Shown piece after piece: positions 2,889 to 30,407 of a stretch of 64,000 bases of DNA. Numbering within the stretch: position 1 is the stretch's first letter; the number at the start of each line of letters is the position of its first letter. The position numbers and the translations under genes are program-made. Source of the DNA: Eledone cirrhosa (lineage: Eukaryota); contig OZ024742.1 in NCBI GenBank assembly GCA_964016885.1, forward strand, positions 351,540,001 to 351,604,000. The letters run 5' to 3'. The notes beneath the pieces were generated by a model. It was not told where the DNA came from. It did no database searches and worked only from the letters and a program-made list of their open reading frames with translations.

Positions 2889-2940
<52 letters not shown>

Positions 2941-3005: not shown

Positions 3006-3115
<110 letters not shown>

Positions 3116-9118: not shown

Positions 9119-9190
<72 letters not shown>

Positions 9191-9203
9191 CACTACTACT
9201 ACT

Positions 9204-9239
<36 letters not shown>

Positions 9240-9258
9240 GAGACAATAATAATAATAA
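9119..9258 (+). repeat. (CTA)n-(TAA)n microsatellite
   Basis: Read directly. Confidence 0.95.
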
Positions 9259-12008
9259 TGAGGAAACAACAAACAAGAAATATCAGAAATGAGGAAACAA
9301 CAAACAAGAAAGATCAGTACCTTGGTGGAAGAAACGACTGAATGGTCAAATCACGGAAATGAGAAATGTCAATGGAAAGCTTGAGTCACTACTGAATGGG
9401 ACACTAAAAGACATAGACACTAAAAATAGACTGGAAATAAAGTACAAAACTAGGAGGAAAAAGCTAAATATTATCATAGAGGAACTGAAGCAACCCATTG
9501 TAGTAAAGAGTGCAAAAATCAGGCGATACGAGAGCAGAGTCAGTTAATATAGACAGAACCGCATGTTTGACAACAATCAGAAGGTGTTGTTTGGACAGCT
9601 TGAAGGGAAAGAAAGTGGCAACGACTTGATCCCTGAGGCGGAACAAACTAAGACATTCTAGAGAGGAATATGGGAGCAAGATGTTAAACATAATGATCAG
9701 GCAGTGTGGATTGAGACAGTTCAAAAGGAGATTAGTGACCAGGCACACCAACAAACTGATTTGAGTATAACAGTTAAAACTCTCAAGGTGCAGGCCAAAT
9801 AACTAACCAACTGGAAATCACCAGGCCCAGATGGTGTGCAGGGGTATTGGATTAAACATGTAACATCCCTCCACCCGAAACTGACAACCATGTTTAATGA
9901 CTGCTTGATGTCAGGTGAGGTACAAGAGTGGTTGACAAAAGGTACCACAGTTCTGGTAATGAAAGACCAAATCAAGGGTAATGATGTTACCAACTATAGA
10001 CCTATCACATGTCTGTCCGTAATGTGGAAACTGTTGACAAGCATTGTGTCTGAGGAAATCTACCATCACCTCCCCACACACAACTTGTTACCGGACGAAC
10101 AGAAAGGATGCCGAAATAAGTCCCGTGGTACAAAGGACTAGCTACTTATTGATAAGATTATAATGAGGAATTGCAAGAGGAGACACACTGGTCTTGCCAT
10201 GTGATGGATAGACTACAAAAAGGCATTTGACATGGTGCCTCTTTCTTGGATCACCAAAAGCCTAGAGATCTTCAAGGTGGCAGATAACATCAGACAGTTG
10301 TTGAGCAAAAGTATGAAGTCCTAGAAAACAGAGTTAACATCAGCTGGAGAATCCTTGGGAGGCGTGAAGATCGAGAGAGGTATCTTCCAGGGAGATAGTC
10401 TGTCCCCTCTGTTGTTTGTCCTTGCCCTGATGCCTCTGACCATTATACTGCGAAAAGTGAGAGCAGGAAACAAGTTGGGAAAGGGAGAGCTTACCATCAA
10501 TCACCTCCTCTTCATAGACGATCTTAAGGTATTCTGGAAGAGTGAGGAGGAGTTGGATGTGCTCGTTGTCACTGTCCGTATTTTCAGCAATGATATATGT
10601 ATGCAATTTGGTATTAGTAAGTGTGGAGTCCTTGTGATGAAGAGGGGTAAATTGAGCAGAAGCAACGGAATCCAGGTACCAACAGGTGAGATGGTTAAGG
10701 AAATTGACACTGAAGAAGTATACAAGTATTTGGGTATTCTGGAGGCTGATGACATCAAGAACAAAAAAATGAAGGAATTGATAAGATCTGAATACATTCG
10801 GAGAGTAGGGAGCGTATTAAAGTCACATCTGAACAGTAGGAATGCCATACATGCAGTAAATTCCCGAGCTGTGTCTATTGTTAGATACAGTGCGGAAATT
10901 ATGAGATGGAATGTTGCTGACAAAAATAAATGGATAGGAAGACTAGGAAGCTATTGGCTATCTACAACATGTGCCACAAGAGGAGTGATGTCGATAGACT
11001 GTACTTAAGGAGATTTGTAGGTGGAAGAGGTCTTATCAGCATAGAGGACTGTGTTCAGATGGAGAAAAACAACCTACACAAATTCGTGACCGATAGTAAG
11101 GAGCCAATACTCAGAATTGTACTGAACTAGAGGACAATAGACCAGGGGATGTCCAAGGAGGAAATAACAACGAGGAGAAAGAGAAACCTTCATGAAAAAT
11201 CCCTTCATAGTACAATCTTTGAGAAAACTGAATTCAGAGATCAACAGACATGGAACTGGTTGAGAAGAGGAGACCTTACAAGGCTACAGAAGGAATGCTA
11301 ATGGCTGCGCAAGAGTAGGCACTCAAAAGAAGTGGCTGAAACACCATATTTACAAGGAGGAGGTTAGCCCACTGTGCAGGATCTGTGGAGAGAGAGAGGA
11401 GACTGTGGCTCAAATTGTATCCGAGTGTAAACACATAGCCCAGACTCACTATAAAGGCTGGAGACATGATGTGATGGACAGGATGATCCACTGGCACCTA
11501 TGCAAAGTAAACAATTTACCACATTCTGAGAAGTGGTATGAGCATAAGCCAGAGTTGGTGATAGAAAACGATCAGGTGAAGGTGCTGGGGGATTTTAGGA
11601 TACAGACGGACAAGAAAATGGAACACCATAGACCTTACCTGGTCGTTTTGGACAAGGAAAAAATATCGTGCCTGATTGTGGATGTGGCCTGCCCATTCGA
11701 CACGAGAGTGCAAGAGAAGGGGAGGGAGAAAATTAACCGATAACAGGACTTAAAGTGGGAGGTAAAAAGGATTTGGAAGTGCCATGAAGTGAAAGTGTCA
11801 TAGGCGCACTAGGTACTATCTCAAAAAGTTTCTAGGGATGGTTAAAGAAAATTGGCCCCGCCACGCTTTTTGGAACACTTCAAAAGGCATGCTTGCTGGG
11901 AACAGCAAGAACTCTCCGATATATCGTGAATATCTGAGGCTGCAGGTAGTGGCTTCATATTCATTTCAACAGACTTTCCAGTTAACTAACATCAATGACT
12001 GAGACTCA

Positions 12009-12010
<2 letters not shown>
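9258..12010 (+). mobile_element. 5'-truncated, degenerate R4/Dong-clade non-LTR retrotransposon (family 1)
   Basis: RT motifs NYRPITCLS, IDYKKAFD, GIFQGDSLSPLLF and HLLFIDDLK. C-terminal CRIC...ETVAQIVSEC, RHD and RPYLVV..CLIVDVACP (restriction-like endonuclease). Many stops. (TAA)n on both sides. Confidence 0.9.
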
Positions 12011-12046
<36 letters not shown>

Positions 12047-12309
12047 TTTCTTTATTAACCACAAGGGTTTACATAAAGTAGACATTAAGGACAGTGCAGG
12101 ACAATGCAGGACGGTACAAATGGGCATTTCTGCGTGTAAAAAAAAAAAAAAAACAGAGGATGTAACAAAAATAACAATGAAAATAACAATGAAAAATTCC
12201 CCAATAGGGGGGAGACTTCGGAGGGACATTTGTGGAGAAAGCCCAGTAAAAAGCCACAATGACCCTGACCACCAAGGCAAGTGCCCTCTCCCAGTTTTCC
12301 ACCTTTAGT

Positions 12310-15300
12310 TTACAGATATATACTCAGAGTCGGCCCATTCACTCGGGCCATTCTTGCTTCTCTCACCCATCTTTCAACAAAATGCTGGGAAGAGAGCACT
12401 TCCCTCTCTACTCTGATTTTCCTTTTCAAATGAAATTTGAAAAAGTCAATCAGAGCATCACCGAAGAGGTAAGTGCTCGTCTTCAGCCCTTTCAAACGTG
12501 TCCACCATACTATCTCTTTCGCCATGGCCACCAGACAGATAAAAACTGCCTGCCCTTCCCGGCTAAAGGAGGAGGGCGGGGCAATCCTCACGATAGACTC
12601 AGATGATAGCTGGATCCGTCCTAAACGCGACAGCAGGTGTTCGACATAAACCCACAAGTCAGCAATTTTCGGACACTGGACGAGTGCGTGCAGGACGGTT
12701 TCGTCGCCATGCGCGCATCTCGGACATGCCCGGCTGACGGCACCTCCATGCCTGTAGAGTTTATCCCGAACTGGCAAGGCTCCTCGGTAGCACTGCCAGG
12801 CCAGAGATTTCTGGAAGTTGTCCATAGGCCCTGGCCCGAAAGTTCTTCCGAAGAGATTGGCTAGTTGATTTTCGTCGACGCCTAGAGTTTCCCCAAGTAC
12901 GTCGTCGCTCTTCCCCTCCACTAATCCTCTATAGAACGCCGAGGTGGAGTTTCCACCGATCACATTGCCCGATTGGTCGAGGGCTGTGAGCGCCTGAAGA
13001 CATTCCAGTCTCCAGGCGCTCCCTCTCGGTCTTCGCTTGACCCAGGACTGCAGCTCCGTCAAGGAAACGAGCTGGGGAAAAACGCGTCTAGCAAACGGCG
13101 ACCACACCTGATCACCGTCGAGGAAGAGGTGGAGATGTCGTAGCCTGAGCGCGTGCCTGCGCATCATCAGCCACGGCATGCCCAGCCCTCCACGTAGCGG
13201 GTGTTGACAACAGATGGACCGCCTGACCATCGGAGCACGTCCCTTCCACAAAAAGCGAAAGAGCAAACGCTCCAGCGCAGTCAGGCGAGGCTTAGGACAA
13301 GGTACGACGGTTAGGCGGTAGCAGATGACAGACGCGATGTACGCGTTAGCCACCTCCGCTCGACCTTTCAGGGATAGCTTCCTCTCCGCCCATTTCTGGG
13401 TGAGAGAAGCCACCCTGCTCGTCACCTCGTCCCAGTTTTTGTCCGTCTGGAGGTCCGGACCGAACCAGACCCCTAGCAATTTAACCGGTCCGTCCGTCCA
13501 GCGCCCGACGACGCTGTTGGACGGCATGGACCTGCCTCTCCAGGTGCCGAGCTGCAGGCCCACTGACTTTTCCTGGTTGATCATTGCTCCTGTCACCGCT
13601 TCGTATTCTCTTAGTGTAGTGCCGATCGCCTCGATGTGTTTGGCGTTCGACACCACTACGGTGACATCGTCCGCATATGCTGACACGGATCTTCCGCATC
13701 CTAGTTCGCGCGGGACTCCCCTCAACGTCTCCAGTTTGTGCAGTAATGGCTCGAGCGTCAATACGTACAAGAGGGACGAGAGGGGACATCCTTGGCGGAC
13801 CGAGCGCATGATGTTGAACGGTTCCGACAGGTGACCGTTCACTCTCACCACAGAGCAGATGTCGCTGTGCATGGCAGCGATCCAGCCTCTGAAGACGGGC
13901 CCAAAGCCAGCCGCCCTCAGGACTGCCGCTAGGTAACGATGGTCGACCCTATCGAAAGCTTTCGACTGATCTAAATTGATCAAGGACCCACCCGTGCCAG
14001 GTTCCCTAGCTACCCTCTCTACGATGTATCGCATGAGGTGGAGGTTGTCGTGGATGGATCTGTCGGGAATGGCGCATGTCTGCGCCTCTCCCACCAGACC
14101 ACCAACGACAAGCGCCAACCTCTTTGCTAGCACCTTGGCCAAAATCTTAAACTCTGTGTTTAGCAGAGTTATGGGCCGGAAATTTTCTATGTTATCCCCC
14201 TTGTTCGGATCCTTTCTCAGCAGTGCCACCGCTCCTCGGCTCACAGAACTGGGAATTCTCCCGTTCTGTTGCCAGTTGCAGTAGACGTCCGCCAAGAGGC
14301 CTCCGAACAAGTCTGGCATCTGTACGTAAAGTTCATAGGGCAGACCATCCAAACCAGGCGATTTACCCCTTGTGCAGCCAGTCATTGCCTCCCTTACTTC
14401 AGCGGCTGTTATCGGCTTTTCGCAACACTTCGCCTCAGTGGCCGAGAGCCGCGGCAGTCCGTCGAGGTAGACACTAAAGTCCATCCCTCTACCCGGCCCA
14501 CCGCTGCCCCCGAACAGCTGAGCGAAGTGTCGCTGAAAAGCTTCACACATTTGCCCGGGATCGAGTAGCATGCGCCCGTCGTGGTCCACCAAAGAGCGGA
14601 TCGTGGCTTTGTTGCCACGACGCGCCTCCGCCACTCGGGCCCATTGCACGGCTTTCGTCCCCTCGTGTCTGAGAGCACGCACCCTTGCTCTGACAACGCA
14701 GCCTTCGTGCTTTGCATTGAAGAATTGGTCAAGGGCCAATTTCGCCGCAAGCACGTCGGTCGCAATGCCTTTGCTAAGCGCCTCGTCTAATTTTCTAACT
14801 AGTTCTCCCTCTGCTCTATTTTTCTCTATTGCTAAAGCCTTACTAAACCTAATCGATTCTATTCTAATCGCTCTTTTCAGAGCAAACCACCACTTGTTGT
14901 TGACGATGGCCCCCGTCAACGCCCGCTTAACTAGTTCGCTAATCCGGTCTCTGTAGGCCTTGCGCGCTGGTAAGGACGCGTTTAGCTTCCAGTAGCCGGG
15001 TCCTCGTCTATGAAGCCTATCTAAGTCAAGCACACAGATCACGAATTTGTGGTCCGTGTAGCTGACTATCTTGAATTGTGGACAGCCTATGCTAGACCTA
15101 TCTATTTCCCTACAAAATACTCTATCTAGATATGATCTGGATGACCCTATGCGGTTTGTCCAAGTCCACATTGGCACATTCGGGAAATCCAATCGGTACC
15201 TGTCAGACAGTTCAAAACGCCTGAGCAGGTTGGTGAGGCTCTTGCACCCTCCACCCCTATCCGCTAATCCCACACAGTCCCAGCGTGCATCTAAGATCCC

Positions 15301-15729
15301 GTTCCAGTCGCCCACTAACACTAAAGAGCGGGACGTTCCAAGAAAGGTCTCCAGACGCCGGAAGAAATCAGGCCGCCCTGCTCCTGTCGGGGCATAGACG
15401 GCCACTAGCCTGAAAGCTTGCCCGTCTCCGCTGGTCACGTCCAGCACCACCAGCTTACCCTCTGGGTCCAGGAAGATGGCCCGTATGGCGAGATCCAAAC
15501 CTCTCCGAAAAAGCACAGCAACTCCTCCACCGGATCCAGGACGGCTGGGAGATGCGTACACATCGAAGCCGCCGAAGATCGGTGCGAAGGCCCGTGCTTC
15601 GGAGATTCTGGTCTCGCTGATGGCCACTACATCTATGTTTAGTGACCTGAGGTCGTTGAGCAGGTGACCCTGCTTCCATGACGACCCCAAGCCACGCGCA
15701 TTTATGCTGCCTATTCTGAGTGAGGTCAT
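12310..15729 (-). CDS. Tx1-like ORF2: APE endonuclease, reverse transcriptase and C-terminal CCHC finger (1139 aa)
   Basis: GSINARG, ISETR, VAVYAP, VGDWN, YLDRVF and TDH (APE); FRPITLLN, LDQSKAFDRV, QGCPLS and YADD (RT); CPRC..ETVLHALVQC. Confidence 0.95.
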   Translation of the reverse strand: MTSLRIGSINARGLGSSWKQGHLLNDLRSLNIDVVAISETRISEARAFAPIFGGFDVYASPSRPGSGGGVAVLFRRGLDLAIRAIFLDPEGKLVVLDVTSGDGQAFRLVAVYAPTGAGRPDFFRRLETFLGTSRSLVLVGDWNGILDARWDCVGLADRGGGCKSLTNLLRRFELSDRYRLDFPNVPMWTWTNRIGSSRSYLDRVFCREIDRSSIGCPQFKIVSYTDHKFVICVLDLDRLHRRGPGYWKLNASLPARKAYRDRISELVKRALTGAIVNNKWWFALKRAIRIESIRFSKALAIEKNRAEGELVRKLDEALSKGIATDVLAAKLALDQFFNAKHEGCVVRARVRALRHEGTKAVQWARVAEARRGNKATIRSLVDHDGRMLLDPGQMCEAFQRHFAQLFGGSGGPGRGMDFSVYLDGLPRLSATEAKCCEKPITAAEVREAMTGCTRGKSPGLDGLPYELYVQMPDLFGGLLADVYCNWQQNGRIPSSVSRGAVALLRKDPNKGDNIENFRPITLLNTEFKILAKVLAKRLALVVGGLVGEAQTCAIPDRSIHDNLHLMRYIVERVAREPGTGGSLINLDQSKAFDRVDHRYLAAVLRAAGFGPVFRGWIAAMHSDICSVVRVNGHLSEPFNIMRSVRQGCPLSSLLYVLTLEPLLHKLETLRGVPRELGCGRSVSAYADDVTVVVSNAKHIEAIGTTLREYEAVTGAMINQEKSVGLQLGTWRGRSMPSNSVVGRWTDGPVKLLGVWFGPDLQTDKNWDEVTSRVASLTQKWAERKLSLKGRAEVANAYIASVICYRLTVVPCPKPRLTALERLLFRFLWKGRAPMVRRSICCQHPLRGGLGMPWLMMRRHALRLRHLHLFLDGDQVWSPFARRVFPQLVSLTELQSWVKRRPRGSAWRLECLQALTALDQSGNVIGGNSTSAFYRGLVEGKSDDVLGETLGVDENQLANLFGRTFGPGPMDNFQKSLAWQCYRGALPVRDKLYRHGGAVSRACPRCAHGDETVLHALVQCPKIADLWVYVEHLLSRLGRIQLSSESIVRIAPPSSFSREGQAVFICLVAMAKEIVWWTRLKGLKTSTYLFGDALIDFFKFHLKRKIRVEREVLSSQHFVERWVREARMARVNGPTLSIYL

Positions 15730-15764
15730 GTTTAAAATAGAGTGGAAAAGATGGGAAAGACCAC

Positions 15765-17858
15765 TTACCGTACTTTTGGTAGAGGAGGGATGGTTTTTAC
15801 ATCCCTTTTCACTTGATCGTCTGGTGAAGGGACCGTTGAATGGTCCCTTCGGCTGGTCGTCGGCTCTTCTAAGAGAATGTCTGAGTATACTCTTCGATTG
15901 ATGGTTCCTCCTAGGTCCCTGAAATCACCAACTGCGTTGGGGAATTTCGTTTTAATATTTGTGTATTGTTTCTGTGCTATTTTTAGCAGTCTTATGTTAG
16001 TTGGCGTTTTGATTGGTGCTGGTATTATGTAGTCCTGTTGTGAAATGTCTGTGTGTTCAATTATGTAAGTCATTAGTTTCTTGTTGTGTGTATTTATTGC
16101 CGTGCATTTGTTTTTCTGGGGGTGGGGTGTGGTTCTGCTATTTTCTTGTCGTTGTTGCTGGGTGTGTGTGTTTTGTTGTTGTGTTTGCGATGTTGGTGCT
16201 TGTGGTGGTGGTGTTGAAGGTGTTGTTGGCGGTGGGGTTGTCGCCGGTGGTGATGGTGGCGCTAGTGTGGGTGGTGATGGTGTTGGTGTTGTTGCTGCTG
16301 TGGGTCTCTTTGCAGTAGACTTTACCCTTTTCTCATTTCTTTCCTCCCTTTTCAAAGGCGACGATGCGCTGCTTCTGCGTTTGTGCCTTCTTGCGACCTT
16401 TTGCCATCCCTCTCCCACCTCACACTCCATGTCTGATTCTGTAAGGTCGGGGAGGGGTACCAGCTCCACTCTTTCACTTGTTGTTGTTGGTGATGTTTGC
16501 ACTGGAGTCTCTGTTGCAGCTGCATTTGGTATTGCTGTTGTTGTTGTTAATATTTCCACTGCTGCTGCTGTCTTTGATTTCCGTGGAGTGGGTATGGGTG
16601 CCACGGACCTATCGTTCCTGGTTGCCGCTTGTCCTGTTGCTGGTAGCCGTGGAGCCGGATTCGGAAGGAGGGGGGTTTTCTCCTTTCTCAGGGTCTTCTC
16701 GTTGCGGAAGGCCCTGAGGTGAGTCTTCGATCCACAGCGAAAGCATTTCGGGCGTTTGCCCTCAACACTTATGGGCAGTTGAGTGCCGTTATCGAAGTCT
16801 ATCACATCCGGGATAGCTTCGATGCACTCCTGGTTGGTTTGGATTAGCATCTCAATGGAGGAGCCGACCCAATCTTCTCTTACTTTTTTCTGTACTTGCA
16901 GTACAGTTGTTTTGTCCTCGATTCCGACGAGGACAGACGCGGCCAGCCAAGAAGGGGTCATTCCGGGGGGGACGTGGGTCAGTTTGACCCTCACAATTTT
17001 TTGCCCGCAGTAGGAGGGCACCAACACCATTTCCTCGCTCCTTAGGGTCACTACTGATTGGGCCTTTGCCTCCTGGGGTGTGGCAAAAAGTACGTCTACG
17101 GTGGCGTATTTTTTGCCTCGGGTGATGTGCGTTTTCCTCTGCCACACAGACCCCAAGGCTTTTTGTATTTGGGCCTCTGTGGCTCTTTCCACCCTACGGG
17201 ATTTTGTACTTACTGTACGGTACGTGACCGTACAGTGCTCTTGGGTTTCGAAAAAATTTTTCGCTGCCTTGCAGATTGCTCGGTGTCCGTTCTTTGTCAC
17301 CATCTTCTTCGCTTCCTCTAATTCCTCATTTGTTATGAGGATTGTCTCCAAGTTTTTCGCAATACCTGCAAATGAGATTGGTTTTTCTCTGCTGTTGTTG
17401 TTGTCGTCAGAGCTGCTGGTACTTTTGTTGCTGCAGGTACTACGACTACTGCCTCCGCCGCTGTTGCTGTGGTTGTTGTTGGTGTTGCTGCTGCTAATGC
17501 TGTTGTTGTTTATGATGCTGGTGATGCTGTTGCGGCTGCTACTGTTGTTTTCATTGTCACTGTTGCTGTTGTTATTACGGCTGCTACTGCTATTATTCCT
17601 GACGTCAGACGAATGAACTGGGTTTTCGTATTTCCCGCACACCTGTTTCGTCGCTGTCGTCGTCGTCGTGGAGAAACCTTGCAGGCTTTGCACGAGACTT
17701 TTCTTTTCTTTCGTCGCTTGCGAAAGAGAAGGGAGGGAGAGAGACACATTTAAAGAAGGGAGGGAGAGAGACAATCTTCTCTCTGCTGTAGTGATGATTG
17801 AGGAAGAAGAAGACGGAATGAGTGGGAGTGACGTATGAAATTTCTTTTTGGTAGCCAT
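15765..17858 (-). CDS. Tx1-like ORF1 nucleic-acid-binding protein with degenerate zinc knuckle
   Basis: Long open frame ending 35 nt upstream of ORF2; first ATG at 17858 (MATKKK). Contains CFRCGSKTHLRAFR, plus N/S-rich and P/T-rich tracts. Confidence 0.85.
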   Translation of the reverse strand: MATKKKFHTSLPLIPSSSSSIITTAERRLSLSLPSLNVSLSLPSLSQATKEKKSLVQSLQGFSTTTTTATKQVCGKYENPVHSSDVRNNSSSSRNNNSNSDNENNSSSRNSITSIINNNSISSSNTNNNHSNSGGGSSRSTCSNKSTSSSDDNNNSREKPISFAGIAKNLETILITNEELEEAKKMVTKNGHRAICKAAKNFFETQEHCTVTYRTVSTKSRRVERATEAQIQKALGSVWQRKTHITRGKKYATVDVLFATPQEAKAQSVVTLRSEEMVLVPSYCGQKIVRVKLTHVPPGMTPSWLAASVLVGIEDKTTVLQVQKKVREDWVGSSIEMLIQTNQECIEAIPDVIDFDNGTQLPISVEGKRPKCFRCGSKTHLRAFRNEKTLRKEKTPLLPNPAPRLPATGQAATRNDRSVAPIPTPRKSKTAAAVEILTTTTAIPNAAATETPVQTSPTTTSERVELVPLPDLTESDMECEVGEGWQKVARRHKRRSSASSPLKREERNEKRVKSTAKRPTAATTPTPSPPTLAPPSPPATTPPPTTPSTPPPQAPTSQTQQQNTHTQQQRQENSRTTPHPQKNKCTAINTHNKKLMTYIIEHTDISQQDYIIPAPIKTPTNIRLLKIAQKQYTNIKTKFPNAVGDFRDLGGTINRRVYSDILLEEPTTSRRDHSTVPSPDDQVKRDVKTIPPLPKVR

Positions 17859-19084
17859 GTTTTTTTGTTTAAAATGAAATTTTGGGTACAAAACCACAAT
17901 AACTGGTTATTTAACCCCGAAGGGCCAAATAACGGACAGAAAGACCCCTCTCACGAGGAGGAGGGTGTCTTTATCAACAATTTGGTTCAAGTTTTAAACA
18001 ATTTACAATTGTTTTAACGGTTAAAAATTACTATACCTTACAGAGCCGAGCCTCCGTCAACCATGGCATTCAATAATAATAATAATAATAATAATAAGAA
18101 GAAGAAGAAGAAGGGAAGAAGACGCACGTGGTGGTAGAAGGTCATGAAATCGCTCCGGTAAGATTTTGATTTTTAACATATTTAAATAAATTGTGAAATA
18201 ACAATTCTTAGTACAAATGATGCATAAATCACCGAATCAAGTCACATAAAAATTCGGATCTATAATATATTGTTATAACGCTCAAATATTCAATGTTGTA
18301 TTATATATTTTATATTAAAAAAAGAAAATGGTTATACATGGAAGAACACCCCCGCTGTCTACACCAAAAACTAGATACACCTCCTACCCCATCACCCCGC
18401 TGTGTACACTAAATATAAATAACAGCCAGATAACGGCAATTTCACCACCACCACCACCAATCCCAGCATCATAATAATAATTACTATTATTATTGTCTCA
18501 AGTTTTAACAAAATGTTTAATTCCAATATTAAGGGAATATGTAAACACATATATTAAACATACGCGACACAAACGCATAGATACTACAGATCAAACAAAA
18601 CTAGTCTATTCGACATAACTCAGTAACGACAACGCCACCGCCGCCACCACTTCATCCATCATTGCTATCACTATCCCATCACCGCCGCCACCACTCCTTC
18701 ATTGCTACCACCTCTATTTCCCGGTTAACTTAAGAAAGGGGAAGGTGGCGGTATCACTAGATAAGGGAGAGGCTAGCAAAATATATAAATAGATTGACTT
18801 AGTGACCCGGCCACCGGCCAAAGGTCAACAACTATGGCACTGTTGGCTCCCCCTTCCCCACCAACAATATAAAAAGCCCCAGCACCACCACCGACATAGC
18901 CAACAACAATAACAGGCAACTTCAGCAAAAAGTATATTATATTATTGTAATGCACTGGGTAATTGCTGGCCTTGTGCCTGGAGTGGATACAATTATTAAT
19001 AATTTCATTCTTAAGCCACGCAATGCTCACATTAAGGAACCCCTCATGATAATAACAATTAAAAAAAACAACAAAAAAGAAAAC

Positions 19085-22000
19085 CCCGTGACCAAGAAAT
19101 ACCGGGATGGTGGCCGGCCGGGAATAGCCGTGTCTCTAGGGGAGAACGACCCCTCTTGTCTTGGTTGACACTCGTTCTAGAAGTGGTAACACGAAATGAT
19201 TACACTTGGCGGATAAGGATAAAACTCGACAAAATAAAGTAAATGTCTAATGATAAAATCTCATACCGGATCGGCCGTCACCCAGGTAAAAAAGGGCCGC
19301 GTCCCTCAGAGAGGAACCAGACTGGGGTCGAAAATCAGCTAATGGTTCAAACCTTCCCATCACTTCGGAGCTGGAGACCTCCCATAACCGGAATACTCCT
19401 ACTGTTGGCCCTCCATGCTCACCACCATGAAATCCAAAGAAAAAGAGAGAAAAATGCTCAAGGGAAGATAATAAAGAAGTCCTTGAGGCTTTCTACACTG
19501 CCATGTACAACCCATCAAATATATCGAATACAGAACAGACATATATCAACTGGAAAATGAAACATCCCGAAAACAGAGGCTATATTGACAGTAACAAACT
19601 AGCCAATATACGAAGAAATATTGTAAAAAAAAATTACTAACTGATATAGAAATTGATCAGATCAAGCTATTAGCACAAAGTCAGCGAAGGGAAAATGAAA
19701 CATGTGTCAGTGAAAACGAGGTAAATTGTAACACTTCGAATCCCAGGGTTGGGGTGGAATCACTGGCAACAGAACAAATTAAAGAAAGGATCGAAAAAGT
19801 GGAGAGAGTTCATGCTCAAGATGAAACTCCAAATGAAAATAATGACATCGTAAATGATAAATAAATGAATGAGAATGAACTTGCCAACTTGAAGGATGAA
19901 ATTATGATCGAATGATGAAAATGAAAAGATCCAGAACTCCAAACAGAACCAAAAGATAATACACAAGACTACCATAATTCTCAAAAACATTATCATCACA
20001 AACAAACTAAACATTACTGATTTAAACCATCTATATTATGCATCGGCTAAAGTCACCACTCACTTATGTGGAGTGAAGATGAAAAAACAAAGGAATTCCA
20101 ACAAGAAATCTACTTGGCAAGAGAACATCAATCGCCAAATAAACCTTCTCCGATCTGATATAGACATTTTAACAAACTATAAAGTAGGTGAACATGTTAA
20201 ACAAACCAAACTTAGAAAATTGAAAAGAAAGTACAGTATAAAATCAACAAGTGACATAGACATGCTGATGGAAATAATCAAGCAAAAAGTGTCGGCCAAA
20301 GCTGCTCGTATAAGGCGCTTTGAAAAACGATCTAGATTCTATAAGGACAATATGTTCAAAAACAACCAAAGAAACGTCTACAGAAAAATTGGTATGTCAT
20401 CAATAACTGCTAAATTAATACCACCCACCAAGGAGGAAGTGCAAGAATTCTGGGAAAAGATCTGGGCCGAAGAAAAAGTTCATAACATACATCCCCCATG
20501 GATAGACAGACAAATGAAAGATACAGCTCACCTTGAAGAACAAATATGGGAAAATATAACAGTTGAACAGTTGCGCTTGGCTCTAAGAAAAACCAGCAAA
20601 TAGAAATCCCCAGGAAAAGACAAAGTACAACATTTTTAGGATAAATGCCTTCACAGAGACTCATGAGCTGTTAGCCCAAATTTACAATGAAATAGTTAAG
20701 GAGCCAGAAAAGATAACATCATGGATAGTTAACGGCATTACATTCCTGCTTCCGAAGAATGATGAGACAAACAGTCCAAAAATTACAGACCGATAACTTG
20801 CTTGACTACAATGTATACAATTTTAACATCAGTCCTAACTGAATATATATATCACCACCTGATAACAAATGACCTATTTCCCATTGAGCAGAAAGGGTGT
20901 AAACGAGGCTCATATGGCTGTAAGGATCAGCTTCTGGTTAACAAAATGATACTGGAAGATTGTCATAATAGACACACAAATCTATCAATTGCTTGGATAG
21001 ATTATAAAAAAGCATTCGATAGTTTGCCACACAGTTGGATTGAAAAATGTTTGGAGATTTTCAAAATATCTCCCGTTGTCAGGAGGTTTTTGTCATTCAG
21101 TATGAAGACATGGAAAACGACACTCCTTTTGAATAGTGAAACAAAATCACTGGAAGCTGGAGAAGTTAATATTAATTGAGGAATTATTAAGGGTGACTCT
21201 TTATCACCGCTTTTTTTCTGCATCGCACTTATACCATTAAGTAAAATCGTCAATGAAACAAAACATGGATATAAAGTCTATGACAAAACCATTAATCACT
21301 TGTTCTACATGGATGACCTGAAACTATTTGCAAAAAATGATGAACAATTGCAAGGGCTATTATCCAATGTGGAGCAGTTCAGTGATGACATTAAAATGGA
21401 GTTTGGGCTAGATAAATGCGCCAAAGCATAGTTCACCAGAGGAAAGCTTCTGAAGAGTTCGGACATTAATCTTGATCGGGGGAATGTGATAAGAGAACTT
21501 GATCAAGAAAAAACTTACACATATCTAGGTGTTTGTGAAGGAGACGGAATCAAGCACTCGACAATGAGGGAAAGGATAAGGAAGGAATGTTACTGTAGAG
21601 TAAGAGCAAACTTAAGAACGGAATTGAATCCAAGGAATAGGATCGATGCCATAAACACGCTTGCCATACCAGTAGTAACCTACAGTTACAATGTCATCAA
21701 CTGGTAAAGCACAGAGATCCGTAGGCTCGATACAACAATTCTAAAATTCTTAACCATGCACAGAATGCATCACCCTAAGGAAGATACAGATATAATATAT
21801 CTCCCTAGGTAAGAAGGAGGACGTGGGTTAATCCAGTTAGACATTTCGTTGAAAACTGCAACAATTGGATTATCTACATATCTAAGGGAATCACATGATT
21901 GGATGATCAAACTCGTTTTCAAACACGAAAGCATCAAAAGATCATATTCCATTACAAAAGATGCACAAAGATACAGTAATGGACTACACATTCCAGAAGT

Positions 22001-23000
22001 CCCATTTACTGCTGAAATGGAAAACACAGAAAAAGCAAAGCAGGTAAAAGTAACTTCCAAGAAAGAACTGCTACAGAAACTGGCTAAGAAATGGCAAGAA
22101 AAAGCCGCTGTATGGAAAATACCCAGAGCGAGCTAACAATCCTGATGTTGACAAAACTTTAACCCATCAGTTGTTGGCATCCTCTGGACTGAAATCGGAG
22201 ACTGAAGGACTGATTATATCAGCACAAGATCAGTGTCTGCCAACAAAATATTACCAAGCCAACATAATACAAAAAGGATGCAGCCCATTATGCCGTGTAT
22301 GCAAACAACAACCAGAGACCATTGACCATATAATTTCAATGTGCAGTTCTATAGCTCCAACCGAAAACCTAAACAGGCATGACAGAGCTGCACAATACAT
22401 TCATTGGATAATGTGTAAGCATTTTGACCTGCCCCATCAAAAGAATTGGTGGGAGCATCAACCACCTCCCATACTTGAAAAAGATCACATCTCAATCTTG
22501 TGGAACTTTAGCATCCAAACAGACCGAACAATAGATGCAAATAGACCTGATATAATATTGAAGGACTTTAAAAAGAGGGTATGCCTGCTAATTGATGTGT
22601 CCGTTCCAATAGACAAGAATGTATCTATAAAAACATTTGAAAAATTGAGCAAGTATAAGGACATGGAGATAGAAATTGGAAAAATGTGGAAATTGAGAAC
22701 TATAACAATACCAGTGGTTGTAGGCGTTCTGGGAATGATGCCTAAGGGGTCCAATGATTACTTATCGCAAATCCCAGTAAACCCGCGTATAGAAGAAATA
22801 CAAAAGATAGTACTAATGGGAACTGCCCATATACTAAAGAAGATTCTGTCAATATATGTACATCACAAGTCTAAACACTAAAAATGCATGTGTGAGTATG
22901 TATGTTCTTTCTTGAACATGGCGGACATTGTTGTCTCTTGAGGTCACTGGTTGTGACTTGGTGATAACTCGTATGAACATAAAGCAAGATAAATGCAACT

Positions 23001-23001
<1 letters not shown>
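19085..23001 (+). mobile_element. Near full-length degenerate R4/Dong-clade element (family 2)
   Basis: R4-type N-terminus (IDSNKLANIRRNIVKKKLLT); RT WIDYKKAFDS, GDSLSPLFFC and HLFYMDDLK; CRVC..DHIISMC, RHD and RPDIILKD..LIDV. Stops and frameshifts. Followed by (TAA)n from 23002. Confidence 0.9.
19090..19193 (+). ncRNA. Candidate decayed HDV-like ribozyme at the 5' end of the Dong element
   Basis: P1 GACCAA/TTGGTT with G1-U wobble, P3 GAC/GTC, L3 CCCTCTT, P4 CACT/AGTG, P2 CGTG/CACG. J4/2 GTAA lacks the catalytic C. Confidence 0.4.
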
Positions 23002-23035
<34 letters not shown>

Positions 23036-23041
<6 letters not shown>

Positions 23042-23407
23042 TAAGATCTGCTTATTGAATTTGAGAAAATGTGGCACCTCAAGGCCGTTACAATACCAGT
23101 ATATATACTGGGTATGATCAAGAAAGGAACAGAACAATATTTGCGAATGATTCCTGGTTTGTCCTCTCTTCTACACAAGGTGCACAGAATTGTTTTAACT
23201 GGTACTGCACACGTATTGAGAAGAGCACTATATCTTTAAGATTGATATCTCATCTTGTATTTCCATATGAATAAGCACATGAGTATATATGTATATATAT
23301 ATATTTTTTTAAATTATAATCAATGTGCTGTATTAACTGGCTTACCAATGCACACTGTGAATTTATTTGCCCTAGGCGTCGGGAAGACGCTTGGCATATA
23401 TTTCAGA

Positions 23408-23415
<8 letters not shown>
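23036..23415 (+). mobile_element. 3' fragment of a third R4/Dong family
   Basis: Encodes DLLIEFEKMWHLKAVTIPV...GTAHVLRRAL, homologous to the C-terminus of family 2. (TAA)n on both sides. Confidence 0.8.
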
Positions 23416-23451
<36 letters not shown>

Positions 23452-23468
23452 TATCTCAGAAACAATAA

Positions 23469-23500
<32 letters not shown>

Positions 23501-23503
<3 letters not shown>

Positions 23504-23800
23504 TAACCGATACCAGGACTTAAAGTGTGAGGTAAAAAGGATTTGGAACTGCCATGAAGTCAAAGTGATCCCGACTGTCATAGTCGCACTAGGGACTATC
23601 TCAAAAGGTTTCCAGGGATTGTGAAAGAAAATTGGCCCCTTCACGGTTTTGGAACGCTTCAAAAGGCATGCTTTCTGGGAACAGCAAGAACCCTCCGATA
23701 CGTCCTGAATATCTGAGGCTGCAGGTAGTGGCTTGATATTCATTTCAACAAACTTTCCTGTTAACTAACATCAATGACTGAGACTCAAAGAGTAAAACAA
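23501..23800 (+). mobile_element. 3' fragment of Dong family 1
   Basis: Closely matches 11730-12010. Confidence 0.9.
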
Positions 23801-23825
23801 CAATAATAATATTAATAGTAATAAT

Positions 23826-24701
23826 ACTTTCTTTAGTAACCACAAGGGTTTACATAAAGTAGACATTAAGGATAGGACATGACAATACAGGACGGTAAAA
23901 ATGGGCATTTCTGCGTGTAAAAAACAAAAACAGAGGATGTAATAAAAAAAACAATGAAAAATACCCTAATAGTGGGGAGACTTCGGTCGGACATTTGTGG
24001 AGAAAGCCCAATAAAAGGCCACAGTGACCCTGACCACAAGGGCAAGTGCCCTCTCCCAGTTTTCCACCTTTAATTCACAGACACATACTCAGATTAGGCC
24101 CATTCACTCGGGCCATTCTTGCTTCTCTCACCCATCTTTCAACAACATGCTGGGAAGAGAGCACTTCCTTCTGTACCCTGATTTTCCTTTTCAAATGAAA
24201 TTTGAAAAAGTTAATCAGGGCATCACCGAAGAGGTAAATGATCGTCTTCAGCCCTTTCAAACGTTTCCACCATACTATCTCATTCGCCATGGCCACCAGA
24301 CAGATAAAAACTGCCTGCCCTTCCCGGCTAAAGGAGGAGGGCGGGGCAATCCTCACGATAGACTCAGATGATAGCTGGATCCGTCCTAAACGCGACAGCA
24401 GGTGTTCGACATAAACCCACAAGTCAGCAATTTTCGGACACTGGACGAGTGCGTGCAGGACGGTTTCGTCGCCATGCGCGCATCTCGGACATGCCCGGCT
24501 GACGGCACCTCCATGCCTGTAGAGTTTATCCCGAACTGGCAAGGCTCCTCGGTAGCACTGCCAGGCCAGGGATTTCTAGAAGTTGTCCATAGGCCCCGGC
24601 CCGAAAGTCCTTCCGAAGAGATTGGCTAGTTGATTTTCGTCGAGGCCTAGAGTTTCCCCAAGTACGTCGTCGCTCTTCCCCTCCACTAATCCTCTATAGA
24701 A
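23826..24701 (-). mobile_element. 5'-truncated Tx1-like copy, same subfamily as 12044-18071
   Basis: Closely matches 12044-12938; the ORF at 24075-24542 corresponds to the ORF2 C-terminus. Confidence 0.92.
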
Positions 24702-25683
24702 CTCTTTATTGGCCACAAGGGCTGACATCAAGTAAAACATTACTGTCGGCACAGGACGGTACGATGTGGGTTTTGTGCGTGTAAATATTTTTATTATTTA
24801 TACAAGAAAAAGAAAAAAAAAGGACATAGAAACATATATATATATATATATAGAATAAAAATGAAAATTGAAACAATGAAAAATTCCCCAATAGGGGGGA
24901 AAACTCCGAGGGTTACTCGTGGCGAAAACCAGGGCAAGCACCCTCTCTCAATGTTTCCATCTCTCAAACTACAGACGTATATTCAGAGTGGTGCCGTTCA
25001 CTCGGACCATTCTCGCTACATTCACCCACCTTTCAACAAACTTGCTACAAAAAAACACTTGCCTCTCCACCCTGATTTTCCTCTTCAAGTGAAACTTGAA
25101 AAAGTTGATTAGGGATTCGCCGAAGAGGAAAGTGTCTGTCTTTAACCCTTTTAACCTTGTCAACCACACAATCTCTTTCGCCATGGCCACCAGGCAGATG
25201 AAAACAGCCTGCCCTTCCTCCTCGAAAGAAGACGGCGAGATCATCTTCACAATGGACTCAGTCGACAACCGGATCAGTCCCACACGCGACAGCAACTGTT
25301 CGACATAGCTCCACAAGTCAGCAATGTTCGGGCACTGAACGAGTGCGTGCACGACGGCTTCGTCGCTCTACGCGCATCTCGGACAGGCTCGGCTGACGGC
25401 ACTTCCGTGCCTGTAGCGCTTATCTCGAACCGGCAGCTCTCCCCGGTAGCACTGCCAGGCCAGGGATCTTTGGAAGCTATCCAGGGGCCCCGGGCTGAAA
25501 GTTCTCCGGAAGAGAGCAAACAGCTGATCTTCTTCGACGCCCAGGATCTCTCCGAGAATGTCGTCTTCTTCCTCTCCACTAGTCCTCTATAGAACGCCGA
25601 GGTGGATGTTCCACCGATACTGGTGCACAGCTCGGAGAGGGCTATCCCTCGCTCTTTTTCTGACCCGGGACTGCAGCTCCGTT
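24702..25683 (-). mobile_element. 5'-truncated Tx1-like copy, second subfamily
   Basis: HALVQCPNIADLW...FFKFHLKRKIRVE; tail ccttgtggccAATAAAga. Confidence 0.9.
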
Positions 25684-25685
25684 AA

Positions 25686-25877
25686 ATAATTGTTTCTACT
25701 TTTGGCACAAGGCCAGCAATTACTCAGTGCATTACTGGTACTTTATTTTATCTACTCCGTAAGGATGAAAGGCAAAGTTAACCTAGGATGGATTTGAACT
25801 CAGAATGGCAAGGGCCGTAACTCTATGCGTCAAAACATGGCGTCCGACCCTCTACCGATACTGCCAATCCACCGCCA
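25686..25877 (-). mobile_element. tRNA-derived SINE (Meta-domain-like family)
   Basis: Homologous to 8040-8222; adjoins a TAA-rich tract. Confidence 0.85.
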
Positions 25878-25896
25878 TTAATAATACTAATAATAA

Positions 25897-26662
25897 TGAT
25901 TTCATTTATTAATCACAAGGGCCGACATGTAGGGGACAATACAAAGACAGGGACAGTGGGGGATTACAATAAGGTTGAGTAAAAGTGCACAATGGCAAGA
26001 CTAATTTAAAAAATGAAGATGTAAGAATATAAAATAAACTATGCATAAATATAACAAAATTACAAAATAAATTCCCCGATATGGGGTGGACGACCCTGGG
26101 GTGACTCTGGTACCGCACCAATCCTGAACCACCCTTCGCTTCTAGGGCACACAGGGAGAGCACCCCTCTACTCAAGTTAGCTAGCCTATAGGCGCATGGT
26201 CAGTGTAGGCCCGTTCACACGAGCCATTCTCGCCACAATCATCCACCTTCTAGCAAATGTACAGGGGGGCAGCACTTCTCTCTCCACCCTCACCTTCCTG
26301 TCCATGTGAAACTTGAAGAAGTTGATGAGGGATTGGCCGAAGAGAAAAGTGTTTTCTTATACTTTTAACCTGGTCCACCATATAACCTCCTTCGTAACTG
26401 CCACCAGATAGAGGAACATTTCCTGCTCTTCCTGACCTAAGGAAGGCGGCGTGTCGATCTTCAATATGGACTCGACCGATAGCCGGATTCGTTCCACACG
26501 CGACAGTAGCTGTTCGACATAACACCACAAGTCAGTAATGCACGGACATTGGACAAGTGCGTGCAAAACGCTTTCGTCGCTCTGTGCGCATCTTGGGCAG
26601 GTCCGTCTGACAGCACTTCCGTGTCTGCAGAGTTTAACCCGAACCGGCAGTGCCCCCGGTAG
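25897..26662 (-). mobile_element. 5'-truncated Tx1-like copy, third subfamily
   Basis: GALPVRVKL..CPRCAQSDESVLHALVQC; tail ggcccttgtgattAATAAAtgaaatca(TTA)n. Confidence 0.88.
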
Positions 26663-27344
26663 CATTGATAAGGAGAAGGCTAGCTCACTGTGTAGGATAT
26701 GTGGAGAGAGAGAGTGTGGGAGGGGGAGAGAGAGAGGAGACTGTAGCACACATCGTATTTGAGTGTAAAGATTCGAGTGCCCAGACACAATATAAAGGCT
26801 GGGGACATGATATAATAGGAAAGGTGATTAACTGGCATTTATGCAAACTAAGCAATTTACCACATATTGAGAAGTGGTATGAGCATAGACCAGAGTCGGT
26901 GATAGAAAACGATCAAGTGAAGGTGCTATGGGATTCCAGGATACAGAAATTAGAACAATGACTTGAAGGTTTTTGACAAGGAAAAAAGAGAGAGCATGAT
27001 TGTAATGTAGCCTGCTCCTTTAATACGAGAGTGCAAGAAAAGCATAAGGAGAAAATTAACCCGTACCAGGATTTAAAGTAGGAGTTTACAAATATTTGGG
27101 ACTGTCTTGAGATCAACATCGTCCCGATTGTAATAGGAGCACTACGTACTATCTCAAAGAGTTTTCACGGATGGTTAGGGATCATTAGTCCATCCCCCTT
27201 TTTGGGAACACCTCAAAAGACATGCTTGCTGGAAACAGCAAGAACCCTCTGATACGTCCGGAATATCTGAGACTGCAGGTAGCGGCTTGATTTTCATTTG
27301 AACAAACTTTCTTGTTAAATTATATTAATGACTTAGACCCAAAG
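26663..27344 (+). mobile_element. 3' fragment of Dong family 1 (more diverged)
   Basis: CRICGER..ETVAHIVFEC..KWYEHRPESVIENDQVKVLWD; matches ~11352-12010. Confidence 0.88.
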
Positions 27345-27349
27345 AATAA

Positions 27350-27430
27350 TTATGGTTTCTTTATCGGCCACACGGGTTAACATGAAGAAAAACATTACAG
27401 AGGGCACAGAACGGTACAGGGCGATACAAA
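27350..27430 (-). mobile_element. Short Tx1-like 3' tail
   Basis: ggtttctttatcggccacacggg...cacagaacggtaca resembles the tails at 12044, 23826 and 24702. Confidence 0.6.
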
Positions 27431-27459
27431 GTGGGTTATGGCCCTGTAAAAATGTTATA

Positions 27460-27580
27460 ACATAAGGATGAAAGCAAAGCTAACCAAGGCAGTATCTGAA
27501 CTGAGCGCGTAATGCTATGTAACTCTATACCGCAAAAATAGTGTCGGAAGCTCTAAAGAATACTGCCAACCTAACTCCCA
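27460..27580 (-). mobile_element. Partial SINE (Meta-domain-like family)
   Basis: taaggatgaaagcaaagctaacc...atactgccaac, followed by (TAA)n. Confidence 0.65.
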
Positions 27581-28142
27581 AACACTAATAATAATAATAA
27601 TGATAATGGTGAACCATCATTTACCCATGCTAATAAATATGCATCTGATTCTAAGGTTTTATATTTTATCTAAGTTGATTGATGCCGTATTATTTATTTT
27701 GAGATTCATGAAATATAGTTCGCTTTACTTAGAATAATAAATCCGAAATGAGAAAAGATAAATCACGATTAAATATGATCCGAATACGGGGCGCTTAAAC
27801 ACATAAAAGTGGATTTACGTAAACTGGAAACATTAAAAATGAATATGATCATGATATTATAAACCATTTCAAGTAAATTCCTAGCTCTCAGCCAATGGAC
27901 GTATATTCACATACATATCTATGGAAATATCGTTAAGAATGTCCACATTGAATATTTACAATGAGGAAACAAATACAGACTCGTACATATACACACTCAT
28001 AAACCCACACACATACACACATTGACTTTATACGTACACGTACACGCACATACACACATTGACTTTATACGTGCACGTACACGCAGATACACACATTGGA
28101 TTTCTATGTGCACGAACACACAGGTGTTTATATATATATATA

Positions 28143-30333
28143 TAGGAATGAGTAGAACCCCAACGGCTGAGCTCAAGCCGTTTCGACGGCTAATTCTGGA
28201 TTAAATGAAAATGTGTATCCTGGTACATGAATAGCCGAGCTTCTCAGGAGGTAATTCCATATATGGTAAAAATGATTGTCACAAGGATTGGTCAAAAGTT
28301 TGTTGTTGAGACACATAATTCTATCATGGTATTTTGTGGAAGGAAGGGGTGGCTGAACTTGCCAGTAGAATAAAGAGGGAGAGGGAGAGGAGGAAACCCA
28401 GTCGTGCGTTGAAAGTGCCAACTACAACAGAATACTAAGGATAAGAGATCAAGAGAAGTATACTAGGGAGGGGAGGGGGAAGTCGAAACAATAAGTAAAT
28501 CTATATGGAGTAAATATATAGAAGAAGAATAAGAATGTTAAAAATATAAAAAAAAACACAATTTCTGGTTACTATTCCCCTAGCACAATCATCAAGTCTC
28601 TCACTGGTACTGCTAAACTATAGAAAAGTTTAATAGGTGGGACGGAATACTAAATACGAGATTGTAGTGAAAATTATTTTATGAGTTAGTAGTAATCGTC
28701 CAAATCTATCTTACAGTGACAGGTCAACAATTAGGGGGCCAAAATACTAAAAAAACTAATACTAAATAATAATTCAGAATCCCGAAAATGAATACTAATA
28801 GGATATATAAGAATACAGCTACAATACATAAATTCTAATACAAACTACATAAATGCTCGTACGATATATATGAAAAATTTAATACGAAAAATTAAATCAG
28901 AATCACCCCCCCCCCCCCCGTTTAAAACATTACTGATATACGAGAAACTAAAGCAGAGATACCATTAAGAAATCTATAAATCACGGAAATGGGCAGCAAT
29001 CAGATGAGAAAGCAAGTATCTGTGGTCTATCACATCTGCTATGAAAATCGGAGTCGGCACATTTCTATCATAGAATAGGGGATGGAGTGGGGGTATGGTG
29101 GCTACAGAGGACCGAAGGGCTGCCTAGGGGTGGGCGAGAAAGTGAAAAGAACGACGACAAAGAAAGAGAACTGGGGTGGAAGGACTAGGAAGGGATGGGA
29201 GAAAGAAAGAAATATAGAGGAAACGATAAAAAATATATAAACAAATCTTACGTCTACCTTTGCAAGCAGGGGTTACCCATTACAAAGTCGGCAAGTGGGG
29301 TGTTACAGCCCTTCCACCCCGGTCCTCCTTCTTTGTCGTCGTTCTTTTCACTTTCCCGCCCACCCTGAGGCAGCCCTTCGGTCCTCTGTAGCCTCAATAC
29401 CCCCACTCCTTCCCCTATTCTATGATAGAATTGGCCGACTCCGCTTTTCATAGCAAATCTGATAGACCCCAGATACTTGCTTTCTTATCTGATTGCTGCC
29501 CCATTTTCGTGATTTATAGATTTCTTAGTGGTATCTCTGCTTTAGTTTCTCGTATATCAGTATATTATTTTTTTTTTGTTGGGAGGTGATTTTGAAATAA
29601 TTTTTCGTATTAAATTGTTCATATATATCGTACGGGCATTTATGTAGTTTGTATTAGAATTTATGTATTGTAACGGTACTCTTATATATCCTATTATTAT
29701 TCATTTTCGGGATTTTGAATTATTATTTCTTATTAGTTTGTTTTGTATTTTGGCCCTCTAATTGTTGACCTGTAAGATAGATTTGGATGATTACTACTAA
29801 CTCATGAAATTGTTTCAGTAAAATTTCGTATTTAGTATTCCGTCGCACCTATTAAACTTTTCTATGGTTTAGCAGTAACAGTGAGACACTTGATGATTGT
29901 GGTAGGGGAATAGTAACCAGAAATTGTTTTTTTTAAAAATATTTTTAACATTCTTATTATTATTCTATATATTTAATACCTATAGATTTACTTATTGTTT
30001 CGACTTCCAAAAGTATACTTCTCTTGACCTCTTATCCTTAGGATTCTGCTGTAGTTGGCACTTTCAACGAACGACTGGGTTTCCTCCACTCCCTCTCCCT
30101 CTTTATTCTACTGGCAAGTTCAGCTACCCCTTCCTTCCACAATATACCATGATAGAATTATGTGTCTCAACAACAAACTTTTGACCAATCCTTGTGACAA
30201 TCACTTTTACCAGATGTGGAATTACCCCCTGAGAAGCTCGGCTATTCATGTACCAGGATACAAATTTTCGTTTAGTCCAGAATTAACCGTCGAAAGGGCT
30301 TGAGCTCAGCCGCCGGGGTCCTACTCGTTCCTA
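28143..30333. mobile_element. ~2.2-kb non-coding fold-back element (arms ~1.04 kb) with terminal hammerhead-like motifs
   Basis: 28143-29185 is the reverse complement of ~29308-30333, with a ~125-bp spacer. Starts at (TA)n. Confidence 0.9.
28157..28252 (-). ncRNA. Hammerhead-like motif with atypical core CUGAGAA
   Basis: ACCTC-CTGAGAA-gctcggcta...tagccgtc-GAAACGGCT tgagctc AGCCGTT-GGGGT. The mirror copy at 30224-30319 is more decayed. Confidence 0.6.
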
Positions 30334-30407
30334 TTACCCACACTACTACCACAAGTATTGAGTACTTCGGTGCGTCATGGTCCATCTGATTCCTTACCAC
30401 GTTTCCT

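Follow-up and report, generated by a model that had tools for sequence, protein, structure and literature searches.

How do two classes of long interspersed nuclear element (LINE) come to fill one stretch of DNA in opposite orientations, with the same trinucleotide repeat between them? The question is raised by an 18.5-kb interval (9119-27610) on contig OZ024742.1 of Eledone cirrhosa, within the 64,000-nucleotide stretch 351,540,001-351,604,000 of a 3.0-Gb genome that was analysed and that is called the window below. Retroelements make up 97% of the interval. Five R4/Dong-type copies, whose class carries a restriction-like endonuclease (RLE), all lie on the + strand, and five L1/Tx1-group copies, whose class carries an apurinic/apyrimidinic-like endonuclease (APE), lie on the - strand together with two short interspersed nuclear elements (SINEs). 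Runs of (TAA)n with n of at least 4 occur eight times in the interval and are absent from the remaining 45.5 kb of the window; the corresponding (TTA)n runs number zero and one. A preliminary description of the locus had proposed that an RLE and an APE element have converged on one microsatellite from opposite strands. Its counts and strands (with three Dong families among the five + copies) agree with our annotation, its endonuclease assignments hold by domain and motif, and the convergence itself is supported by the genome-wide flanks and the fixed orientation described next. Our answer, which we regard as probable, is that R4/Dong and L1/Tx1-group elements share (TAA)n/(ATT)n tracts throughout the genome in fixed opposite orientations, likely by nicking opposite strands.

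Repeat tracts at the ends of the two LINE classes

For the genome-wide analysis we used top hits as anchors for 40 ten-kb loci and added 100 ten-kb loci at fixed steps on ten contigs (the systematic megabase), 12 further loci and 127 three-kb loci from searches. Loci of the window did not enter the counts, a junction found more than once was counted once, and a copy was scored only if it had at least 84% identity to our element library. At the 3' ends, TAA was found in 103 of 104 Dong copies and TTA in 71 of 75 Tx1 copies. The 5' ends are the informative ones. All 38 full-length Tx1-like 5' ends carry (ATT)n, and the exact register ATTATT|GAATG was seen at 38 of 41 full-length junctions. Full-length Dong 5' ends carry TAA in 25 of 33 cases and TTA in none. 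For 5'-truncated ends the raw counts with a tract were 36/62 (Dong) and 8/24 (Tx1). After 14 Dong and 8 Tx1 internal breaks and two Tx1b/c rows whose 5' end is unknown had been set aside, with a flank of 50 nt, the true truncated Dong copies showed TAA in 39/48 and TTA in 0, and the Tx1 copies showed ATT in 9/14 and TAA in 0. The null expectation for a tract at a 5' flank is about 0.8% per orientation. The repeat thus stands at both ends of both classes, each in its own orientation.

The junctions between neighbours follow the same rule. Every tract-containing Dong-Tx1 junction joins copies on opposite strands (40/40, of which 22 are tail-to-tail and 18 head-to-head), every Dong-Dong one joins copies on the same strand (52/52), and so do 24 of 25 Tx1-Tx1 junctions, the exception being a compound TTA-TA-TAA tract. 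All 18 head-to-head junctions contain a correctly oriented tract; the window has such a junction between Tx1a and DongB, where (TAA)8 and a short (GAA)n lie at 18072-18111 (+) and cannot come from the tail of any element. Because head-to-head tracts are not tails, the outcome that the preliminary description had named as fatal to its own proposal, random 5' flanks and random orientation across the genome, did not occur.

These regularities can be put together in a simple insertion scheme. In it, Dong would cut the TTA strand, its Tx1-like counterpart would cut the TAA strand, and target-primed reverse transcription would follow in each case. Full-length Tx1a and Dong copies have repeat tracts on both sides, and regeneration of the target is visible in this. 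Each insertion would make two tracts from one, which would account for about half of the long tracts now bordering a LINE. New insertions would then fall beside old ones in proportion, and arrays would grow by preferential attachment, plus some exact tandem duplication.

The nick of the Tx1-like enzyme can be approached through the SINE, a short, non-coding, high-copy element (1 Mb contains 80 copies that retain a 3' end). Target site duplications (TSDs) of 10-23 nt were obtained for 35 of 83 SINE1 copies; 32 of the 35 begin with ATTAT, and a pyrimidine precedes 31 of them (p 2e-6). With duplications that start in this way, the priming strand would be nicked at 5'-ATAAT/R-3', a counterpart of the TTTT/A site of L1, and the 3' end so released would pair with the (AUU)n tail of the RNA. 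Judging from the SINE sites, what the APE recognises may be the short motif ATTAT and not a long tract. That the short motif suffices is shown by a SINE inside a DongA body (L108:5770-5954), which sits at ATTAT, has a 15-nt duplication and lies on the same strand as the Dong. That the SINE borrows the Tx1-like machinery is probable from three features: its orientation is that of the Tx1-like copies, its 3' tip is similar to theirs, and its duplications start with ATTAT. From the resemblance of the tips over about 20 nt, Tx1 is its likely partner; the alternative partner would be another ATT-tailed element, which was found at 5 of 60 random tracts (L143, L157, L177, L203, L206).

Competing explanations and the growth of arrays

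Several observations weigh against the sharing of tracts as we describe it. Eight of the 33 full Dong 5' ends have no TAA within 25 nt, and a GAA run intervenes in four of them. Before internal breaks were removed, 16/24 Tx1 and 26/62 Dong truncated ends had no tract, and among the true truncated copies 5/14 (Tx1) and 9/48 (Dong) have none. Three of the 13 junctions in the window (both outer ends counted) are without a tract and two have a remnant of one to two units, so that the earlier statement that most junctions are (TAA)n stands for the eight with a clear or degenerate tract. A tract of at least 8 nt precedes only 17 of 76 full SINE1 5' ends, no TSD was obtained in 48 of 83 SINE1 copies, and the likeness of SINE and LINE tails is limited to about 20 nt. 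The anchored loci, being top-scoring hits, are biased to young copies, and the random sample contains only 21 long tracts, from which a modest extra attraction would escape.

A rival account is that a short ATTAT site is enough for insertion and that the long 5' (ATT)n of full-length copies, with its exact register, arrives on a read-through RNA and anneals to the target during second-strand synthesis, as in the parallel case of the 28S leader in some R2 elements. The specificity for long tracts would then be partly apparent, and the same orientation and clustering would be expected. We consider this unlikely, though worth serious attention. SINE1 does use short ATTAT sites, the full-length junctions are far more precise (38/41) than the truncated ones (9/14), and head-to-tail Tx1a arrays able to yield such transcripts exist. 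However, read-through predicts a unique TSD of 10-23 nt upstream of the 5' tract, and among 15 full Tx1a copies none has the sequence beyond its 3' tract duplicated upstream (1/12 for Dong, that one repeat-like). The 5' tracts of full-length Tx1 copies also range from 5 to 23 units, with four shorter, and a copy of the (ATCT)n family described below (L368) has a 5' repeat of a single unit that abuts the tail of the preceding element.

A second possibility is that arrays arise since certain regions attract or tolerate insertions (through chromatin, low recombination or purifying selection elsewhere) beyond the supply of target. The clustering is certainly strong: the 40 anchored 10-kb loci contain 88 LINE 3' ends (anchors included), compared with 11 in the 100 systematic ones. 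Hotspots of transposable elements are also reported for Octopus vulgaris (PMC13282606; for this and the papers cited below we rely on excerpts). On the other hand, the remaining 45 kb of the window have no Dong or Tx1 copy by tblastn with intact proteins, in agreement with the earlier description, apart from a marginal 27-codon match at 38492 (E 0.002). Of the 21 tracts of at least six units in the systematic megabase, 11 adjoin a LINE (13 of 58 at four units or more). Young Tx1a copies adjoin a LINE in 10/29 cases at the 3' end and 13/25 at the 5' end, rates that do not differ from that of the long tracts (Fisher p 0.25 and 1.0). Since a young copy meets a neighbour at the rate of a long tract, target supply is sufficient for the clustering at these small numbers, and we find additional regional attraction improbable; target supply would then be the sole cause. 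The "self-growing trap" of the preliminary description requires target regeneration only. That part was seen; no attraction beyond target supply was detected in the small sample, and the locus is not special, such arrays being common in the genome.

The array of the window could also have been built from one Dong-TAA-Tx1 junction that was duplicated locally, in tandem or as a segment. Positions 11731-12937 and 23501-24702 align at 92% across such a junction, and exact tandem repeats of 5'-truncated DongA units with identical truncation points and junctions exist elsewhere (three copies at L269, five at L279). When the pieces are compared with copies outside the window, however, these are closer than the partner within it (DongA2 95.8 against 88.6%; Tx1a 99.3% over its 3' 900 bp against 93.6%; Tx1a2 95.5 against 93.6%), and the pieces, which differ in age, represent three Dong families and four Tx1 subfamilies. 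The best outside identity is 99% for Tx1a, 95-97% for DongA1, DongB, DongA2 and Tx1a2, and 81-91% at the right end. Tx1a, with the highest value, is therefore the latest arrival. For the window, duplication is largely refuted and very improbable; by these identities its copies are independent insertions of different ages, as arrays are generally composed of copies of different ages. Exact tandem duplication does enlarge some arrays elsewhere, as at L269 and L279. A head-to-tail array of near-identical full-length Tx1a copies, at least 80 kb long with a spacing of 6.06 kb, lies at C4:357,932,000-358,025,000 (L276-L278), its copies joined by 6-16 ATT units of unequal lengths.

Finally, that TAA/TTA is merely an element-encoded 3' tail and insertion is random would explain the 3' ends and the truncated copies without a 5' tract, and is refuted beyond reasonable doubt by the 5' tracts on full-length and variously truncated copies, which are never in the wrong orientation, and by the 18 head-to-head junctions.

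Identity of the elements and comparison with known systems

Intact DongA has a single open reading frame (ORF) of 1141 aa (8/8 fetched copies) with a Pfam RVT_1 match and no Exo_endo_phos match, and its best PDB matches are R2 proteins. C-terminal CCHC, RHD and PD..D..K restriction-like motifs, as commonly defined, are present in DongA and DongB. DongA yielded 42,737 candidates at first look, a figure that is not a copy number, and at least three Dong families are present. A recurrent 3' end outside our library, followed by TAA, was noted at L032, L050, L066, L067, L104 and L107 and is probably a fourth. As a further observation, the first ~115 nt are common to DongA and DongB at 82% (L109:3343, window 18112, L268:1057), with proteins 37% identical, and intact DongA copies have a DongB-like 5' untranslated region (UTR), which suggests an exchange of 5' UTRs. 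A 5' ribozyme like that of hepatitis delta virus (HDV) has been shown for Dong of B. mori; an Rfam search of the DongB 5' region (17850-18500) gave no HDV-like ribozyme and three sub-threshold, unrelated matches only.

The Tx1-like element has two ORFs. Tx1a ORF2 contains Exo_endo_phos, RVT_1 and zf-RVT, in the order APE, reverse transcriptase (RT), zinc finger, and its best PDB match is human L1 ORF2p (E 2e-52), with the APE catalytic motifs aligned. Its candidates numbered 52,834 at first look, again not a copy number; the best 150 of them were scored, all identical over the last 100 aa and many with frames of 1195-1204 aa, so the family is young. ORF1 gave no Pfam match at the cut-off; Atlas matches of 0.90-0.93 to CCHC/RRM/ZCCHC3-like clusters are a lead. 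A CX2CX4HX4C knuckle occurs in 27 identical rows plus variants, the fourth zinc ligand being Arg in the window copy and Cys in most copies. By these motifs, ORF1 appears to be of the RRM plus CCHC type, unlike the coiled-coil type of vertebrate L1. Among named homologues of the RT, the nearest comes from Argonauta hians (74%). We use the label "Tx1-like" because no named Tx1-clade reference was among the homologues found by protein searches; likewise, none of 95 Dong homologues carried a clade name. Both names thus rest on architecture and target rather than on a tree with named references. Relatives in metagenomes are mostly 21-33% identical, and nine with inspected ends showed no TAA/TTA tract. 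Three distant ones (L280, L287, L324) adjoin what we take to be U1- or U2-small nuclear RNA (snRNA)-like sequence, which would fit targeting of the Keno type.

Tx1-like copies at about 70% DNA identity and ~60% protein identity have a 3' end of (ATCT)n instead. The systematic megabase yielded 24 Tx1-type 3' motifs: ATCT in 14 cases, ATT in 7 and another in 3. A tree was built from the last 200 aa, keeping 25 of 80 rows after removal of duplicates, near-identical and stop-rich rows, with midpoint rooting and nine rows without a tail label; a 100/100 branch separates all labelled ATCT rows from all ATT rows. One ATCT 5' end used as a query gave 659 candidates, of which the best 40 were scored (99-100% identical), and ATCT lies directly at the 5' junction in all 20 fetched from these 40. 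Copies with (ATCT)n at both ends and 99% matches, hence young, were found at L187:3893 (-), L189, L131, L167, L198 and L360-L379, and the clade builds same-strand arrays of its own with 5.73-kb spacing. Sequence comparison points to a target switch between ATT and ATCT within one lineage, in which the sister clade would behave in the same way on (ATCT)n. Between the ATCT clade and Tx1a the endonuclease domains are 58-60% identical; differences lie within the predicted hairpin loop and close to it (WTWTNRIGSSRSY against WSWSNRSGSSRSY), the loop position being assumed from L1. Separately, we noted that each Tx1-like clade starts with a short inverted copy of its own target (ATT|GAAT at window 18068-18077, CTATCT|TGATAG at L187:3893), which may be chance.

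TRAS and SART are both APE elements of the R1 clade. In Bombyx mori both families use the same simple repeat as target and face opposite ways in it, with the endonuclease setting the specificity (PMC7265360). The present system is like them in sharing a repeat from opposite strands, and differs in that an RLE and an APE element do so in dispersed interstitial TAA tracts, not in telomeric (TTAGG)n. Dong, a single-ORF RLE element of the R4 clade, is found in TAA microsatellites of B. mori, A. gambiae and B. glabrata (PMC3812793, PMC3774820), in B. mori with TAA upstream of its 5' end on the sense strand (PMC3774820), and in O. vulgaris Dong-R4 elements are abundant and show recent activity (PMC13282606). 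When compared with these, the elements here comprise at least three families with tens of thousands of first-look candidates and hold their tracts in common with an APE lineage. Microsatellite-specific APE elements are known as well: Kibi targets TC and Koshi TTC repeats (PMC3812793), and together with crocodilian Tx1 families they cover (TC)n, (TTC)n, (TTCC)n and (TTTC)n (PMC4494074). The elements studied here target (ATT)n and (ATCT)n, and set against the threshold of more than 20% of flanks used in PMC4494074, the preference amounts to 38/38 in the ATT family and 20/20 in the ATCT family. Keno (Tx1, APE) and Utopia (RLE) evolved one target in parallel, the U2 snRNA genes (PMC4640811), but at the same site with the same 3' flank in a low-copy gene, whereas the present pair uses opposite strands of a repeat that is multiplied by the elements. 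In crocodilians, SINEU has the target preference of its partner Tx1-Mar and forms tandem insertions (PMC4494074); there the target is a transposon and the SINE heads derive from snRNA, and here the site is an ATTAT motif.

Papers on cephalopod repeats report abundant Dong-R4 (all three) and L1-Tx1 (two of them) (PMC13282606, PMC8967140, PMC9115989), and term searches of the retrieved text of these three found no target analysis; the excerpts of PMC3747384 and PMC4758252 add nothing on targets. The literature that was searched, outside Repbase and subscription journals, yielded in excerpt no ATT- or ATCT-specific Tx1 element and no sharing between Dong and Tx1, and an earlier description of either is possible. 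Every ingredient has a precedent (Dong in TAA, TRAS/SART, Keno/Utopia), so this is a variant of target-specific LINE biology and not a new kind. We give somewhat better than even weight to a broader view in which the Tx1-like elements form an undescribed octopod radiation with young ATT- and ATCT-specific clades whose endonucleases are about 60% identical, and in which the ATT clade joins Dong in a two-strand community whose members breed each other's target and supply about half of the genome's long TAA tracts. With (ATT)n and (ATCT)n, two targets are added to the Tx1-type list, and one system combines the convergence of RLE and APE elements on one target with opposite-strand sharing of one repeat. 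A cause at the level of sequence is offered for LINE clustering and for the abundance of TAA tracts in an octopod-like genome. With two endonucleases that are closely related, recently amplified and yet different in target, what determines APE specificity becomes open to direct testing; if the view is true, the ATT/ATCT sister pair is a natural experiment on how an APE domain changes its target.

Anatomy of the array and its surroundings

The window was annotated by self-BLAST, ORFs and the element library, with DongC assigned by tblastn (E 2e-18). The array had been called nested; its copies in fact adjoin one another within tracts, and none sits inside the body of another. The left boundary is (TAC)29 followed by a (TAA)n tract (9119-9259, +), and a 31-bp direct duplication (9257-9317, +) marks the truncated 5' junction of DongA1, a decayed copy at 9291-12008 (+) whose body is at most 95% identical to 18 other copies. 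The tail-to-tail junction (TAA)12 at 12009-12044 (+) leads to Tx1a (12045-18071, -), a young full-length element of 6027 bp with open frames and (ATT)n at both ends. Its ORF2 (APE, RT and zf-RVT; 12310-15729, -) is without stops, with an open frame of 1204 aa, and its ORF1 (15765-17858, -; 697 aa) is RRM/CCHC-like. Beyond the head-to-head tract described above lies DongB (18112-23001, +), a full-length but decayed copy of 4.9 kb whose family has 37% amino acid identity to DongA. A 51-nt SINE 3' piece in its 5' UTR (18947-18997, +) is the sole exception to the strand rule in the interval; it lies in sense orientation and is fixed in the family (29/29 other copies). The earlier placement of two SINEs on the - strand holds for SINE1 and the SINE 5' half described below.

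To the right of DongB follow (TAA)12 (23002-23037, +), a 3' fragment of DongC, the third family (23040-~23410, +), two (TAA)10-11 tracts with a 53-bp duplication (23411-23503, +), the 5'-truncated 3' end DongA2 (23501-23788, +) and a degenerate TAA tract (23789-23827, +). Tx1a2 (23828-24702, -), an older 5'-truncated Tx1a copy whose 5' end has no tract, is followed by a Tx1b 3' fragment (24703-25685, -), the full-length SINE1 of ~190 bp (25686-25879, -), a second degenerate TAA tract (25880-25899, +) and a Tx1c 3' fragment (25900-26667, -). DongA3 (~26668-27342, +) is an old, diverged 3' fragment, at most 81% identical to other copies, and its 5' junction has no tract. The array ends with a Tx1d 3' tip (27350-27420, -), a SINE 5' half (27440-27585, -) and (TAA)5 at the right boundary (27586-27600, +). 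We also asked whether the head at 27440-27585 and the Tx1d tail together form a chimeric SINE, and found no support for it: among the other fetched loci none has a match that starts in the head and runs through both parts, and the eight rows that seemed to span them were the window itself and seven matches starting at the boundary. The SINE family of the array has four further copies in the window outside it, on both strands. ARAGORN and Rfam found no tRNA head in the SINE; we presume a likeness to A and B boxes, and the octopus SINE label is likewise our assumption.

Elsewhere in the window, a pair of 1.05-kb inverted repeats (89%) lies immediately to the right of the array (28142-30334). A minisatellite with a 10-bp unit in 55 copies is found at 43553-44105, a near-perfect palindrome of 349 bp at 53487-53835, and an AT-rich fold-back region at 1901-3104. 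An 818-bp inverted repeat (96%) at 54708-57514 overlaps a 188-aa frame with a weak GIY-YIG match (E 7e-4) and is probably a Penelope-like element.

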